Assembly (NCBI GenBank): GCA_039809905.1
Contig: JBDHVY010000001.1
Coordinates: 660,001-692,000 of the forward strand
Origin: Candidatus Babelota bacterium
Lineage (GTDB): Bacteria; Babelota; Babeliae; Babelales; Vermiphilaceae
Direction: 5' to 3'
Length of the DNA stretch: 32,000 bases
Numbering within the stretch: the first letter of the stretch is position 1; every line of letters begins with the position of its first letter. The notes beneath the pieces are model-generated. The model searched no databases. It was not told the origin of the DNA and was given only the letters and a program-made list of their open reading frames with translations. A program made the position numbers and the translations under genes. This document shows positions 18,637 to 22,953 of the stretch, one piece after another.

Positions 18637-19989
18637 CTAATTTTTAGAGAGATTTTCATATTGATTTAAATAATTATCGGTGACATATCTTTTTTCAAAT
18701 TTTTTAAAAATTATTTCTGGTTCTAGAGTAGATAGCAATGTTCTTTGATCGCGAGTTAACTCCTCTGAAATTTTTTCAGTAAAATTCCATTTTTCTATTT
18801 TTGTTGGATTGTATATTTTTTCACATAGATGAATCAAGTCGCGCATTTGTTTAATTTTTAGTAATTTATTTTGTGCTTCAACAACTGTTGTTAGCCGCTC
18901 TTCAAGAGTTTTTTTGGGTTTTTCTGCGGCATACTTAGTAGCTTTTTCTATTATTTCTTGAATGTCAGTCAAAGTCATATTGTTTGTGTTGTCTAGAAAA
19001 TATTTTCGCAATTTTTTTTGTTCTTTGGGTAATATTGGATCTATAATTTTTTCTTTTTCTGGTAATTGTGGTAGTTGTTTTCGATATTTTATCTGTTTGA
19101 TATCCCATAGAGCTCTAGCAAAACAATCACAATCTATATTTTCTAATTCTGAGTTCTTGTTCATTGCAATTTGACTTGCATTTGAAATAAAGCTTTCTAT
19201 ATCTGCGGAATTTAATCCTTCTGTTACTTCTACTAACATTTTAAGAAAAGAATCAGGTATTTCTTTTTTAGGAAATATCTTTACAAAATTATCAGAAGGG
19301 ATTTTATTAAAAGATATTCTTAGTAAGTTTTCACGTTGAGATTCATTAAGAGCAGATTGTCCTGATTTCTCTTTTAGTTCTTCGAGCATTGGTTTAATAA
19401 CCGTTATCAAAGAAATATTTTGAGTTGATAAAAGTAATTCATGATATATTATTCGTAAAAATTCATGCTTGAAAGCTGGTATAGAGCTGTCAGTGAAATC
19501 ATTAGGCTTCTTTTTTTTTAATTTTTCAATTATTTGATTAATGTAATAGTCGATTTTTGTTCTTGTATCTGCTTGAGCTATTTTTGATCCTAATACTGTT
19601 TTATATATATTAAAAGTTTCTTCAGGTAATCCAGTTACTATTGTCTTTAATAAATTTATTGATGATTTAATAGATGCACTCGATTTATAAGGAATTGGTG
19701 TGAGGTATCGATCATACAATTCCTGTGCAGCTTTGCTAAATTGTTTATCCAGAGATGCGTTTTTCTTGTATCGCTTATAATTATATAGCCACGAAAAGTC
19801 TTCAAAAAGATCAGAAATATTTGTCACATTTTGTTTGTAATTATAATAGCTTTTCATCAATGTAGAAAGAGTAGTACGTATACCAGTAATTGTATCCCAT
19901 AGTGCATACAGTTGTTCTGCAGCACATATTTGTGTAGGCGATGCGTATATACTTATACTAAGCAAAGCAATCAAAAGATTATTCTTCAT
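18637..19989 (-). CDS. Secreted hypothetical protein (K/E-rich, predicted helical)
   Basis: The ORF extends to 20142. Internal ATG 19987-19989 is preceded by AAGGAA and begins a classic signal peptide MKNNLLIALLSISIYASPTQICA|AE. No recognisable domain. Confidence 0.65.
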   Translation of the reverse strand: MKNNLLIALLSISIYASPTQICAAEQLYALWDTITGIRTTLSTLMKSYYNYKQNVTNISDLFEDFSWLYNYKRYKKNASLDKQFSKAAQELYDRYLTPIPYKSSASIKSSINLLKTIVTGLPEETFNIYKTVLGSKIAQADTRTKIDYYINQIIEKLKKKKPNDFTDSSIPAFKHEFLRIIYHELLLSTQNISLITVIKPMLEELKEKSGQSALNESQRENLLRISFNKIPSDNFVKIFPKKEIPDSFLKMLVEVTEGLNSADIESFISNASQIAMNKNSELENIDCDCFARALWDIKQIKYRKQLPQLPEKEKIIDPILPKEQKKLRKYFLDNTNNMTLTDIQEIIEKATKYAAEKPKKTLEERLTTVVEAQNKLLKIKQMRDLIHLCEKIYNPTKIEKWNFTEKISEELTRDQRTLLSTLEPEIIFKKFEKRYVTDNYLNQYENLSKN

Positions 19990-20170
19990 TTCCTTTACCT
20001 TGTTTTTTTGATATTCAATCTGAATATAACAATGAGGGTAAAGAAAAAACAAGAAAAGACCAAACTCTTTTTTATCAGAAACGTGGTCTAGGTTCTGTTG
20101 AATTTTTGAAACAGTATCAAAGTTGTAGCACGAATATTTCAAGTAACTCCACGTGCTTATTCTGGCTTGT

Positions 20171-20542
20171 TTAATTTTTTGATACCATTTCTTGTTCTAC
20201 TTGTTGCTCTATTTTTGCCATCATAATGCAAGCAGGTGCAGCTAATAAAGTTCCCGTGAGCATGTATCGTAAACCTATTTTTTTAGAAGGTATTACATGG
20301 TAGGGAGGTTTTTGCAGGAAGTTAGGCATTCTATTTGAATAATGCATAGCTCCCCAGACGCTTATGAGTGGGTTAAGTAAGAGTGCAAATCCCGCCATTT
20401 GCCTAAGCTCCGCTTGCGCAAATGACTGTTTAGCATATATTTTTTTTCTTATTAAATCTTTTTGATTGTTCTCACTAGCAGCTAAAAGCATGGATAATAT
20501 TGCTAATATAAGCATAAGAATTAAGTTTTTTAAAGGAGCCAC
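20171..20542 (-). CDS. Small hypothetical membrane protein
   Basis: 123 aa. GTG start with AAGGAA 9 nt upstream. Hydrophobic segments LILMLILAILSMLLAA, GFALLLNPLISVWGAM, LTGTLLAAPACIMMA. Confidence 0.5.
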   Translation of the reverse strand: MAPLKNLILMLILAILSMLLAASENNQKDLIRKKIYAKQSFAQAELRQMAGFALLLNPLISVWGAMHYSNRMPNFLQKPPYHVIPSKKIGLRYMLTGTLLAAPACIMMAKIEQQVEQEMVSKN

Positions 20543-20684
20543 AATCTTTGTTCCTTTTATTCCTTTTTCTATTTTTTAGCTAAATCATATGTATGGAAAT
20601 ATTTTTTTACAAGATTTTTAATGATTGCTATCCAGTAACTTGAAACAATGATATTTTTTTAAAATTATATGATTCGGAGAGTGT

Positions 20685-22427
20685 GTGAGAAATTTTATTA
20701 TTCGTAGTTTGGTAATTATTGTAAACATGAGTGGGTTGTGTCTAGCCAATGAATTTGGTTCTACCGTAACACCAAATTCGATTATTTATATACAAGGCTT
20801 ATATAATGAACAATCTTTTTTTCAACAACCTAGTTCTTCTTGCCAAGCATATAAACATCGCAACAACATTTATTTTGGCGAAAACTTACATAATTATACG
20901 ATTACGCAACTTCAGCATTATTTCAGAACGCATAATTATTCTGAGCAACAAATACTTGATCAAGGATTATTATATCTTTCTGACGAGTTTGTAAAACTTG
21001 CAAAAACCTATGCTGCATATGAGCAAACCATAGAAAAATTGTACAATAAGTTCAAAAAATTTGGGTTCATCAAGAAGATTTTATATAGGTTTACAGGTTC
21101 TTATTCTTCTGGACTTAAACGACGCATAAGACAATTGCATGAAGAAATTCGCCTCAAAAAAGAATGCGAAAAAAAACAAGCAATCGAAACAATGCAGCAA
21201 TATAGTATATATTCTCACTATCTGCTATCCGATGTGAGCGATAGAGAATATCAAGAGTTAAAACCAGTGTATGATCAATTTTCACCATTACTTGCGCAGG
21301 CAATTGAAAAACGAATAGATGCTCAGACCAAAATTAAAAAGGGATCAGTTCAAGTTTCAACTAAAACATATCGATGTAGTGATTATATGTTGCAATTGCT
21401 TAGCGATAACAAAATTGGCCTTGATGAATTTACAAATTTCTACGGTAACCAATTGCAGCATGCTCTTCATTATGAATCAATCGGGATTCTGGAATATGTA
21501 GCGTCTTTGCCGATGTATTCAGTGTTATATGTTCATCAGAATGCAATTGTTAATTGTACTACAGCACTATCTGCCTACAACAAAGAAGGTTTAGTTGATA
21601 AAGCAAGTGTGGTAGCAGATTTTTGTTGGACTTTGCTTGATTATGGTCAGGCAATAGCAGAAGGTGCAGCATCAGGTTTATATACAACAGCGCAAGACCT
21701 TATAGCTAATCCTATTGAAGCAACTGTGTGCATTGTTGCAGGCAAACAGGTTCTTGCGTATCAGTTGTGCAAAGTATTTTATAACGTGACTGATATTGGA
21801 ATAACTGCATTAAATAATTATGATCGCGCAAAAGAAAAATGGGATTATTATATAGAGCCTATCAATAATCTGATTTCTGCTATCGAAAAAAAAGAAATAA
21901 CAATACGTGATGCCTTAAAAACAGGAACAGCTTTTGTTGTTGGCTATAAGGCACAAAGCAAATTATTGGGCGGGCTAGGTCAGTTTTTTGGGACGATTAA
22001 GCAAAGTGCTATTCGGTTTGCACAAACCAATATTTCTTCTTTTACAATACAGCAATATTTATCAACGCCAGAAGGATATTTATTAAGAAGCACTGCTAAA
22101 TTGTGTCGTTCGTCTAATTCTCCTAATCAATATGAGTATCTAAAACAATGGCTAAAAATAAAGGAATTTACTTCAGTTATAAAAACGAGCAAACACGGGA
22201 TAGAAAGATTAATCGAACGAGATTTCACGCCAGAAGAAGTTCTTGCAGTGATGAAGACTCCAACTTTTGTTAAAGTTCAGAAAGATGGGGCATTTGCTTA
22301 TATAAAACAAATAGGAGAAAAATTTAATGTGATTGTTTTTAATAAACAAAATGAAGAAGTTGTAACTGTTTTAAAACATACAACGCAAAAAAAACTTGAG
22401 CAGATGGGAAAAAATTATGGATGGTAA
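20685..22427 (+). CDS. Secreted polymorphic-toxin-like protein with C-terminal DUF4258 / RelE-BrnT-like RNase-toxin signature
   Basis: 580 aa. GTG start with GGAGAG 4 nt upstream. Signal-like MRNFIIRSLVIIVNMSGLCLA|NE. C-terminal 22191-22424 = KHGIERLIERDFTPEEVLAVMKTPTFVKVQKDGAFAYIKQIGEKFNVIVFNKQNEEVVTVLKH. Its stop codon is overlapped by the next ORF. Confidence 0.6.
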   Translation: MRNFIIRSLVIIVNMSGLCLANEFGSTVTPNSIIYIQGLYNEQSFFQQPSSSCQAYKHRNNIYFGENLHNYTITQLQHYFRTHNYSEQQILDQGLLYLSDEFVKLAKTYAAYEQTIEKLYNKFKKFGFIKKILYRFTGSYSSGLKRRIRQLHEEIRLKKECEKKQAIETMQQYSIYSHYLLSDVSDREYQELKPVYDQFSPLLAQAIEKRIDAQTKIKKGSVQVSTKTYRCSDYMLQLLSDNKIGLDEFTNFYGNQLQHALHYESIGILEYVASLPMYSVLYVHQNAIVNCTTALSAYNKEGLVDKASVVADFCWTLLDYGQAIAEGAASGLYTTAQDLIANPIEATVCIVAGKQVLAYQLCKVFYNVTDIGITALNNYDRAKEKWDYYIEPINNLISAIEKKEITIRDALKTGTAFVVGYKAQSKLLGGLGQFFGTIKQSAIRFAQTNISSFTIQQYLSTPEGYLLRSTAKLCRSSNSPNQYEYLKQWLKIKEFTSVIKTSKHGIERLIERDFTPEEVLAVMKTPTFVKVQKDGAFAYIKQIGEKFNVIVFNKQNEEVVTVLKHTTQKKLEQMGKNYGW

Positions 22428-22644
22428 AGAAAAAAAAGATAGATATGTATGTTGTTTTTGTGATGTTGTAATAGTATCTTGTAATGGCAATCCTATGGAA
22501 ATAGACATGTTAATAAATTTTGACAAACCAAAACAAAAACAAGAAAGGCAAGCCTTTTATTGTCATATGGAATGTTTTAAAGAACAGCTAAATGATGATT
22601 TTAAGATACATTTTCATTTAGATTCTTTTATTTCTTTAGAATAG
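22417..22644 (+). CDS. Cys-rich mini-protein (CCFC...CHxxC), candidate immunity protein 1
   Basis: ATG 22417 lies inside the last 11 nt of the upstream ORF (ATGGATGGTAA); GGGAAA sits 6 nt upstream. About 75 aa: YVCCFC...FYCHMECFKEQL. Paralogous to 22678-22953. Confidence 0.6.
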   Translation: MDGKEKKDRYVCCFCDVVIVSCNGNPMEIDMLINFDKPKQKQERQAFYCHMECFKEQLNDDFKIHFHLDSFISLE

Positions 22645-22677: not shown

Positions 22678-22953
22678 GTGAAATTAAAAAAAATCATAAA
22701 AAGAATATGGTCTATGATACAAGAAACGATCAACAATGAGTCTTTAGGATTTTCTTGTTGTTTTTGTTCCCAATCAATAATGGCTTTAGATAAGTATCCA
22801 GCAGATCTTCATATTACTGTTAATATTGATAAATCGGAAGATCAACAGCATGATCAATTTTTCTTTTGTCATACAGATTGTTTTAAGAATAAGTTGCATA
22901 ACAATATAAAATCTTACTTTACACTAGAGCAAATTGAGGACAAATATGACTAA
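22678..22953 (+). CDS. Cys-rich mini-protein (CCFC...CHxxC), candidate immunity protein 2 (paralogue)
   Basis: GTG 22678 (alternative ATG 22714). FSCCFC...FFCHTDCFKNKL. About 30% identity by eye to the preceding ORF over about 62 aa, with all Cys/His ligand positions conserved. Confidence 0.55.
   Translation: MKLKKIIKRIWSMIQETINNESLGFSCCFCSQSIMALDKYPADLHITVNIDKSEDQQHDQFFFCHTDCFKNKLHNNIKSYFTLEQIEDKYD

Follow-up and report, generated by a model that had tools for sequence, protein, structure and literature searches.

A gene on the plus strand at positions 20685–22427 of the window, by which we mean the whole 32,000-nucleotide stretch analysed here (positions 660,001 to 692,000 of contig JBDHVY010000001.1, from a Candidatus Babelota bacterium), probably encodes a Sec-exported polymorphic toxin of the Dependentiae (Babeliales), with a predicted RNase tip that belongs to a recombining cassette and small Cys/His proteins that would serve as antidotes. 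The parts of the protein follow one another in the order signal peptide, carrier scaffold, junction and DUF4258/Ntox49-type tip. A first-pass annotation had placed here an open reading frame (ORF) of 580 amino acids (aa) with a GTG start and a GGAGAG Shine-Dalgarno sequence, and it is present exactly so. This reading frame, which lies in DNA of 34% GC, is not a product of chance, since its 580 codons have 118 homologues at E ≤ 1e-25 in a full-length search and since an exhaustive HMMER search of 1.84 billion representatives returned 874 clusters at E ≤ 1e-3, of which 229 reach E ≤ 1e-30. The features of the locus, all on the plus strand, are as follows.

20675..20680, plus: GGAGAG, Shine-Dalgarno-like hexamer 5′ of the GTG start (read from the sequence)
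20685..22427, plus: toxin gene, putative polymorphic toxin of 580 aa (ORF, homologue search and conservation profile)
20685..20750, plus: predicted Sec signal peptide, residues 1–22, likely cut after GLCLA (hydropathy heuristic, homology)
20751..20888, plus: variable linker, predicted disordered, residues ~23–68 (predicted local distance difference test score, pLDDT, <50 at residues 20–63; lowest conservation in the carrier)
20889..21644, plus: all-alpha carrier domain 1, residues ~69–320 (pLDDT mostly >90; moderate conservation)
21645..22055, plus: carrier core, residues ~321–457, long amphipathic/hydrophobic helices, Gly/Ala-rich (top-residue frequency 0.72–0.78)
22056..22085, plus: junction/recombination motif YLSTPEGYLL, residues 458–467 (family consensus YLxTPEGxL[FL]K)
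22128..22427, plus: toxin tip, residues 482–580, a lead-in helix and a predicted DUF4258/Ntox49-type BECR domain (PF14076 match at residues 502–561, nt 22188–22367)
22417..22644, plus: candidate immunity gene 1, 75 aa, a C-x2-C...H-x2-C protein that follows DUF4258-type tips (family alignment A4)
22678..22953, plus: candidate immunity gene 2, 91 aa from GTG, paralogue of gene 1 (homologues)

Exchange of tips beyond a conserved junction

The polymorphic-toxin architecture that had been proposed for this locus is borne out when the family is compared: a conserved carrier ends at a sharp junction, at least 13 different tips follow it, and the downstream ORFs co-vary with the tip. Specifically, the 118 homologues, which where named belong to Candidatus Babeliales or Dependentiae, share residues ~80–470 up to the YLxTPEGxL junction, in which Y458, T461, P462, E463, G464 and L466 are conserved at 90% or more. 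The conservation profile is moderate from residue ~80, very high at residues 260–470, and collapses at ~480, after the junction. When the tails beyond this point are grouped, 97 proteins give 13 unrelated clusters and a larger set of 121 gives 17; these 13–17 clusters are the other C-terminal variants on the same scaffold that the first-pass annotation had suggested searching for. The tips that can be named are Ntox17 (E 4e-24), Ntox21 (1e-27), Ntox35, EndoU, CdiA_C and a ColE3-like ‘Cytotoxic’ domain. Several other clusters match no Pfam family (the tips of P0020, P0005, P0108, P0111, P0113 and others), for example one of 15 members with the sequence YPGTKIPKSF and one of 8 members with DGYYEVNGFKF; they may represent new toxin domains, and each has a downstream ORF of its own.

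Across 14 loci, each toxin gene has a tightly coupled ORF directly downstream, and which family this ORF belongs to depends on the tip.

Ntox17 tip: coupled downstream ORF of 127–136 aa (4 loci)
Ntox21 tip: coupled downstream ORF of 153 or 171 aa
EndoU tip: coupled downstream ORF of 130 aa
ColE3-like tip: coupled downstream ORF of 266 aa
Unknown-B tip: coupled downstream ORF of 111 aa
DUF4258-type tip: coupled downstream small Cys-rich (CCFC) protein (5/5 loci)

The exchange can be followed at single sites. Three closely related genomes (L001, L007 and L008, with TolQ 86–87% identical) hold the toxin gene at one site, between tolQRA and p210-tolB-ftsH, and carry three different tips there. Locus L003 is syntenic with the window, in that ftsA-ftsZ precede the toxin gene and an aldehyde dehydrogenase gene (Aldedh, minus strand) lies beyond it, and its toxin bears an Ntox17 tip followed by a 134-aa ORF, whereas the window has a DUF4258 tip at the same site. 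DNA identity runs at 70–85% through the carrier, sinks to the background level where the junction lies and rises again past the immunity gene or genes; between the window and L003, an identity of 80–85% falls to background at ~22060. These comparisons show that, past the junction, recombination exchanges the tips as cassettes that include the cognate downstream genes. The GC content of the tip (30.3%) and of the two immunity genes (25.9% and 27.5%) is lower than that of the carrier (34.0%) and the window average (33.9%), which is consistent with a cassette of separate origin.

The window itself contains one copy of the toxin gene. Its genome, an NCBI contig of 1,228,744 bp, also encodes the paralogues P0035 and P0070, both with other tips. 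Among GTDB species genomes, a scan detected the carrier at 11 loci, of which L006, L007 and L010 are named Babeliales or Dependentiae and the others bear only the generic titles ‘uncultured bacterium’ or ‘uncultured Pseudomonadota’. Loci L013, L014 and L015, in two metagenome-assembled genomes titled ‘uncultured Pseudomonadota bacterium’ (CAZHJT01..., CAZNPD01...), have a Dependentiae-type carrier, and either these genomes are taxonomically mislabelled or the family extends beyond the Dependentiae.

The C-terminal tip as a divergent DUF4258/Ntox49 member

On the basis of sequence comparison we accept the tip as a divergent member of DUF4258/Ntox49. The first-pass annotation had recognized a DUF4258 pattern in the C-terminal module, and PF14076 indeed matches nearly the full length of its profile (positions 2–69 of 71; E 8.6e-5), with a score of 23.2 bits where the Pfam gathering cut-off is 25 bits. 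In an alignment of 16 homologous tips (A2), 12 match DUF4258 at E ≤ 0.01, each independently, and none matches another toxin family; a search with the A2 profile also reaches relatives outside this protein family, of which the close relatives P0129 (27.1 bits) and P0141 (27.9 bits) pass the gathering cut-off. Firmicutes fragments are named ‘DUF4258 domain-containing protein’ by NCBI. The residues H504, G505, R508, L509, E511, R512, F514, P516, Q532, G535, K541, T561 and Y578 are invariant in all 16 tips, including the H, R and E residues that had been singled out earlier. Ntox49 was defined by a conserved H and [KR] together with the Ser/Thr that BECR domains carry on the last strand (Zhang et al. 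2012), and these defining residues are present here as H504, R508, R512, K541 and T561.

The AlphaFold2 (AF2) model built on A2 (pLDDT 93) comprises a lead-in helix and then two helices, four strands and a helix (pre-alpha, alpha, beta1–4, alpha; in tip numbering H22–30, H35–43, E47–50, E56–62, E65–72 and E77–85). The tip is thus predicted to adopt a BECR fold, and its modelled topology fits that of colicin-like BECR domains (pre-alpha + alpha + beta1–beta4). A 2026 preprint states that DUF4258 overlaps the Ntox49 of Zhang et al. 2012 and assigns it to the colicin D/E5-like BECR branch, with a [pre-alpha + alpha-beta1-4] topology and an active site on the pre-alpha helix and beta4; in our model these two elements carry the invariant H/R/E/R and T561, at the colicin-like BECR active-site position. 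Characterised members of this branch mostly cleave tRNA (2026 preprint), and by analogy with colicin-like BECR toxins the tip is a predicted RNase whose likeliest substrate would be tRNA. The description ‘RelE/BrnT-like’ given in the first-pass annotation therefore needs to be divided. It is sound at the level of the BECR superfamily, as Gerdes (2025) places DUF4258 in the RelE/ParE superfamily with its activity listed as ‘Unknown’. It does not extend to the individual families, as profiles of RelE, BrnT, HigB, ParE and YoeB gave no Pfam/NCBIfam match in the protein at E ≤ 1 and DUF4258 is placed in the colicin-like branch. Foldseek found a weak resemblance of the tip model to HigB and RelE and no significant structural match, a search of the tip profile against the PDB returned nothing below E 0.6, and among the PHROGs there was a weak match to a family of unknown function (phrog_30031, E 1e-4).

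Given the sub-threshold Pfam score, the lack of a significant structural match and the fact that DUF4258 has no characterised member, it is also worth considering that the likeness reflects only a shared small alpha/beta fold and that the tip is not a nuclease, in which case any toxicity would come from another activity or from an effect of the hydrophobic core on membranes; it is this core of the carrier, not the tip, that is the most conserved part of the protein. We regard this as improbable, because the invariant H, R, E, R, K and T map to the two elements, pre-alpha helix and last strand, that hold the active site in colicin-like BECR domains, because the tips of sister proteins are bona fide nucleases at full Pfam significance (Ntox21 at 1e-27, Ntox17 at 4e-24, and EndoU), and because immunity specificity tracks the tip and not the carrier.

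Small Cys/His proteins paired with the tip

The immediately coupled small ORF to which the first-pass annotation drew attention is real, with an ATG (22417) that overlaps the toxin stop by 11 nt, but the two downstream ORFs are paralogues of one family (35% identical, E 1e-15) and not two different candidates. Gene callers differ on the start of the second, giving 79 or 91 aa; we prefer the 91-aa GTG form, because orthologues of 88–91 aa in L001, L002 and L003 have N-termini (MxIKxILQIIWSKI) that match the longer product.

The family to which both belong has 81 members, all named ‘hypothetical protein’ and without a Pfam domain. Its alignment (A4) contains an invariant CCFC..P..Q.F.(C)H..C pattern, or C-x2-C-x34-H-x2-C, with the invariant Cys and His at C12/C13-x-C15 ... 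H50-x2-C53, which may be compared with the zf-PARP pattern C-x2-C-x(~28–34)-H-x2-C. The zf-PARP profile (PF00645) gives a weak match in 5 of 14 members, the best at E 0.008 and far below the gathering cut-off of 39 bits. For Imm22 there is no Pfam match to either small ORF at E ≤ 1 or to 14 members of the family at E ≤ 10, no helix-turn-helix (HTH) or ribbon-helix-helix (RHH) DNA-binding domain is found in them by Pfam, and the family has no match among PDB sequences. Kinship with MqsA or Imm22 was considered and was set aside, as it has no profile support. The candidate immunity proteins lack signal peptides and so would act in the cytoplasm.

A CCFC protein directly follows the DUF4258-type tip in 5/5 Dependentiae loci and in 2/2 orphan cassettes of Firmicutes. 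In the two Firmicutes genomes concerned (L018 and L019), the same tip occurs as an orphan cassette within classic polymorphic-toxin islands (SUKH, LHH, PT-HINT/Tox-HNH, DUF2247) and is followed by a member of the Cys-rich family (E 2e-19 and 7e-20). The stop/start joint at the boundary of the toxin gene and immunity gene 1, ATGGATGG, is conserved, and in both phyla a stretch at this junction (...TATGGATGG...) encodes the toxin C-terminal N-Y-G-W and the partner's M-D-G, with overlaps of 11–17 nt. This linkage of tip and CCFC protein across phyla and across carriers is the strongest available computational evidence for a cognate toxin–immunity pair, and the CCFC proteins are likely the cognate immunity for the DUF4258-type tip.

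Orphan CCFC genes are kept in L003, L005, L011 and L015. In L003 an intact Cys-rich pair lies just past the ORF specific to Ntox17, and we read it as a pair of orphan immunity genes. Past the Ntox17-tipped toxin of L015 there are nine consecutive small plus-strand ORFs of 60–129 aa (L015:7224–10429), two of them of the CCFC family, in what looks like a poly-immunity locus. The family member P0021 (Babeliales, 492 aa, VLB80_00885) stops 23 residues past the TPEG junction, at a point that would fall within a DUF4258-type tip, and is followed by the CCFC protein P0166, which has the next locus tag (VLB80_00890); this looks like a truncated toxin with its immunity gene kept.

The N-terminus and the carrier

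The signal-like N-terminus reported in the first-pass annotation holds up in the family comparison. Residues 4–22 (FIIRSLVIIVNMSGLCLAN) are the sole 19-aa window with a Kyte-Doolittle hydropathy above 1.4 (1.75), residues 2–20 form a signal helix in the AF2 model, and an N-terminal hydrophobic segment is present in 80/98 full-length homologues as compared with 0/98 in an internal control region. Three homologues (P0004, P0014 and P0015) align through the h-region and have in common with this protein a ‘GLC[LS]A-[NDV]E[FI]’ junction. One gene caller took an ATG at codon 15 (566 aa), and an NCBI-derived call of 580 aa is on record (P0229); the GTG start is favoured because homologues share the h-region and junction, because the 580-aa call exists and because of the N-terminal hydrophobic segments in the family. 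The candidate secretion determinant is a signal-peptide-like N-terminus, predicted by a hydropathy heuristic and by homology. Pfam and NCBIfam scans found no known trafficking domain in the protein, and a promoter and terminator scan of the locus found nothing above shuffled expectation in this AT-rich DNA.

That the N-terminal 490 aa contain no known delivery domain, as the first-pass annotation had stated, agrees with our searches: the ~460-aa carrier has no Pfam or NCBIfam match in this toxin or in 18 other family members, and no PDB match by sequence or Foldseek. The RHS, LXG, DUF1020/MafB, PT-TG, PT-VENN and filamentous haemagglutinin/CdiA carrier domains are absent from the protein in the Pfam/NCBIfam scans, which likewise found no type V, VI or VII secretion system (T5SS, T6SS, T7SS) or Rhs delivery machinery attached to the carrier. 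In the whole-protein AF2 model (pLDDT 77.5), residues ~327–480 form long helices that are poorly modelled, although this is the most conserved part of the sequence; near-invariant residues of the core include C314, W315, D319–G321, A323, G327, G331, L428 and G430. The peptides quoted in the first-pass annotation are exact, AIAEGAASGLYTTAQDLIANPIEATVCIVAG being residues 323–353 and KHGIERLIER... starting at residue 503 (nt 22191). The idea that the carrier is a simple integral-membrane protein was dropped, as no segment beyond the signal peptide reaches transmembrane-like hydropathy, and 4wbq, a sequence match of the full protein in the PDB, was discarded as chance-level (E 0.05).

Some longer relatives, and only these, contain a PT-HINT domain, and there the carrier core lies downstream of it. 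In P0302 (852 aa) and P0286 (2093 aa) the signal peptide is followed almost directly by a Pretoxin-HINT domain (Pfam match), then by a long spacer, the carrier core and the tip; the TPEG junction is found in P0302, whose tip is Ntox21, and not in P0286. The N-terminus of P0253 (1443 aa), which has a ColE3-like tip, is HINT-like by eye and has no Pfam PT-HINT match. PT-HINT releases whatever lies C-terminal to it. Since the core is C-terminal to PT-HINT in these proteins, it would travel with the tip, and by inference this points to a role of the core in target-cell entry rather than in export alone.

There is also a bolder possibility, which we put forward tentatively and with more doubt than conviction: that the carrier core (~260–470) is a new, self-sufficient module for entry of many nuclease tips into target cells that dispenses with T5SS, T6SS, T7SS or Rhs machinery, and, separately, that the tandem C-x2-C...H-x2-C proteins constitute a new zinc-finger immunity family for Ntox49/DUF4258. 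The first part is supported by the core being the most conserved part of the protein, hydrophobic, helical, poorly modelled and downstream of PT-HINT in longer relatives. By analogy with colicins, entry might proceed via the Tol system, because in one clade the toxin gene is translationally coupled to tolA inside tolQRA-tolB and because the disordered N-terminal segment is like colicin translocation domains. The arrangement concerned is that of L001:4037–10378 (also seen in L007 and L008), where the stop of tolA and the start of the toxin gene overlap by 4 nt; L011:447–7413, a more distant locus, has an uninterrupted tolQRAB with the toxin gene ~1.4 kb downstream of it. The placement between tolA and tolB could be mere synteny, or it could reflect a functional link with Tol (vesiculation or colicin-like import).

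An uncleaved N-terminal anchor would lead to a different picture, in which the protein is a membrane-anchored or periplasmic module resembling toxin–antitoxin (TA) systems, acting in the producer itself by addiction or abortive infection. DUF4258 domains are also known from type II TA loci and from fusions with MqsA. MqsA is a zinc-binding antitoxin, and the putative immunity proteins of the present locus are Cys/His-rich too. A variant of this picture is ‘host addiction’, as in the idea advanced for a Bodo saltans endosymbiont; it has been suggested that polymorphic-toxin-like TA systems enforce dependence on the host (PMC8163844). We think a TA-like module very improbable here, given that the tip is not a free-standing toxin of 70–100 aa and instead follows a conserved 480-aa carrier with swappable tips, that the partners lack an HTH or RHH DNA-binding domain, that the PADLOC defence-system library gave no match, that the signal-peptide-like ‘GLCLA|NE’ junction is conserved, and that related proteins bear the PT-HINT release domains typical of exported polymorphic toxins.

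Target and mode of action

For an exported toxin of this kind, the following course may be envisaged. The toxin would cross the inner membrane by Sec and would leave the cell by the type II secretion system (T2SS), by vesicles or by another route; the hydrophobic, conserved core of the carrier would help the tip into a target cell, either a competing member of the Dependentiae or another bacterium in the same protist host. There, the tip would act as a metal-independent endoribonuclease, probably cutting tRNA or other stable RNA, with catalysis by H504 together with R508/R512/K541 and T561. In the producer and its kin, the small, cytoplasmic, zinc-finger-like proteins would bind and neutralise the tip. 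According to two papers, the Dependentiae possess and rely on Sec and T2SS-like components and encode many proteins with signal peptides; neither paper mentions type III, type IV or type VI secretion systems.

We infer that a bacterial target is most likely, be it kin or competitors that share the protist host, because the immunity genes change along with the tips, survive as orphans and arrays, and circulate among free-living Firmicutes in their conflict islands. According to Zhang et al., adjacent immunity genes mark toxins of bacterial conflict and not host-directed effectors, and the host-directed toxins of endosymbionts lack immunity genes. The principal alternative is a secreted RNase that acts on the RNA of the protist, either to shut down translation or to supply nucleotides, in which case the downstream proteins would only protect the producer's cytoplasm before export. 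Such a role would suit the Dependentiae as obligate intracellular parasites, for which it has been suggested that secreted nucleases and proteases degrade the host, and in Chromulinavorax 44% of coding sequences have signal peptides; furthermore, the substrates of BECR RNases (tRNA, rRNA) are universal, and no interbacterial delivery machine (T5SS, T6SS, T7SS or Rhs) is attached to the carrier. We nevertheless consider a host-directed effector unlikely, if well short of negligible. Beyond the typical lack of immunity genes in such effectors (Zhang et al.), the immunity genes here not only co-vary with the tips and stay behind as orphans or arrays after tip replacement (L003, L015), but also form the same tip–immunity cassette in conflict islands of free-living Firmicutes, and the fast turnover of tips among close relatives suits conflict with kin or competitors better than a fixed host target.

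Several points weigh against the interpretation of the gene as a toxin of bacterial conflict that we favour. For obligate intracellular bacteria the host is an equally conceivable target of an RNase, and orphan immunity genes might be leftovers of recombination instead of selected defences. The signal peptide is a heuristic prediction, the carrier core has no classical transmembrane segment and is modelled at low confidence, and the profile and structure searches with this protein found no dedicated outer-membrane exporter or receptor-binding domain. As for the tip, its own DUF4258 score of 23.2 bits is under the cut-off of 25, and DUF4258 is without a biochemically characterised member (Gerdes 2025), such that RNase activity and substrate are deduced at the level of the fold.

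Comparison with known systems

The closest functional analogue is MafB of Neisseria, which combines a signal peptide, DUF1020 and a variable C-terminal toxin with MafI immunity and which Zhang et al. 2012 assigned to their ‘T2SS (MafBN)’ class. Both systems have a Sec-type signal peptide (predicted in the present case) and a lineage-restricted N-domain that ends in a conserved motif, both carry swappable C-terminal toxins from the same pool with an immunity gene directly downstream, and both have several paralogues per genome as well as orphan cassettes; Ntox49, Ntox17, Ntox21, Ntox35, EndoU and ColE3 are all listed with MafBN (Zhang et al. 2012). In contrast, the carrier described here is an unrelated all-alpha protein with no DUF1020 match (in this toxin and 18 family members), there is no conserved mafA-like outer-membrane partner, as the neighbours vary by locus (ftsZ, tolA or an ABC transporter), and the lineage is one of obligate intracellular parasites of protists.

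With DUF4258/Ntox49 in general, the tip has in common the near-full-length hidden Markov model match, the conserved H, K/R and last-strand T, the predicted topology and the placement at the C-terminus. It differs in that the subfamily is divergent, with this tip and most of its relatives just under the Pfam cut-off, and in its extra C-terminal helix ending in a conserved NYGW; moreover, it pairs with a Cys/His small protein, whereas Ntox49 was listed with Imm22 (Zhang et al. 2012).

Nuclease colicins and S-type pyocins (colicin D, E5, E3) would share with this toxin the character of a diffusible protein with a disordered N-terminal segment and a helical middle, a C-terminal RNase of BECR or ColE3 type (predicted in our case), and a tightly coupled small immunity gene. 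Group A colicins use the Tol system for import; the parallel in the present family is the gene in the tolQRA-tolB cluster of one clade, which is genomic adjacency only. Unlike this toxin, colicins lack signal peptides and use lysis proteins, and no colicin translocation or receptor domain was detected in the protein. Finally, the RelE, BrnT and HigB toxins of TA systems belong to the same BECR fold superfamily (Gerdes 2025), and there is the weak Foldseek resemblance to HigB and RelE, but here the tip is fused to a putatively exported carrier of 480 aa and has no RelE, BrnT, HigB or ParE profile match, the partner is not a DNA-binding antitoxin, and DUF4258 is placed in the colicin-like branch.

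Novelty and significance

Polymorphic toxins of this kind and the tip family are known, and NCBI automatically labels some siblings by their tip. The carrier family, the junction motif, the abundance of the family in Dependentiae and the Cys/His immunity family linked to DUF4258/Ntox49 appear to be undescribed, since there is no Pfam model and no paper connecting Dependentiae to polymorphic toxins turned up in our literature search.

The Dependentiae occur ubiquitously as obligate parasites of protists, have hardly been cultured and have genomes of ~1 Mb, and yet they possess a large polymorphic toxin family. The presence of three paralogues in a genome of 1.23 Mb, together with the 874 clusters, suggests that warfare in and around protist hosts is worth keeping in a reduced genome. 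The carrier, to which no dedicated secretion machine is attached, could point to a simple way by which nucleases pass from cell to cell. DUF4258/Ntox49 has ~6,000 members without a characterised activity, and the present locus offers a clean cross-phylum pair of putative toxin and immunity gene as a test system. In addition, the YLxTPEGxL junction and the conserved stop/start joint could be used to annotate loci and to mine them for new toxin and immunity domains.

Other genes in the window

The 501-aa ORF at 18637–20142 (minus strand) and its 123-aa neighbour at 20171–20542 (minus strand) were considered as partners of the system and rejected, both being absent from the syntenic L003. The former has a signal-peptide-like stretch at the internal Met 52 (MKNNLLIALLSISIYASP...), so that the true start may lie further into the ORF. 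Downstream of the cassette, an ORF of 365 aa (24786–25883, plus strand) gives weak, sub-threshold matches to WD40/beta-propeller domains of eukaryote type (best E 2.7e-5, CDC20/Fizzy) and is a possible eukaryote-like effector, a type of protein often found in intracellular bacteria. It is followed by a 376-aa ORF (25989–27119, plus strand) whose product has a hydrophobic segment at the N-terminus and a charged, coiled-coil-like repeat (ERERIRLERERNRILQERNRIEQQK) at the C-terminus, and both this and the 501-aa ORF are putative secreted proteins of an uncharacterised kind.

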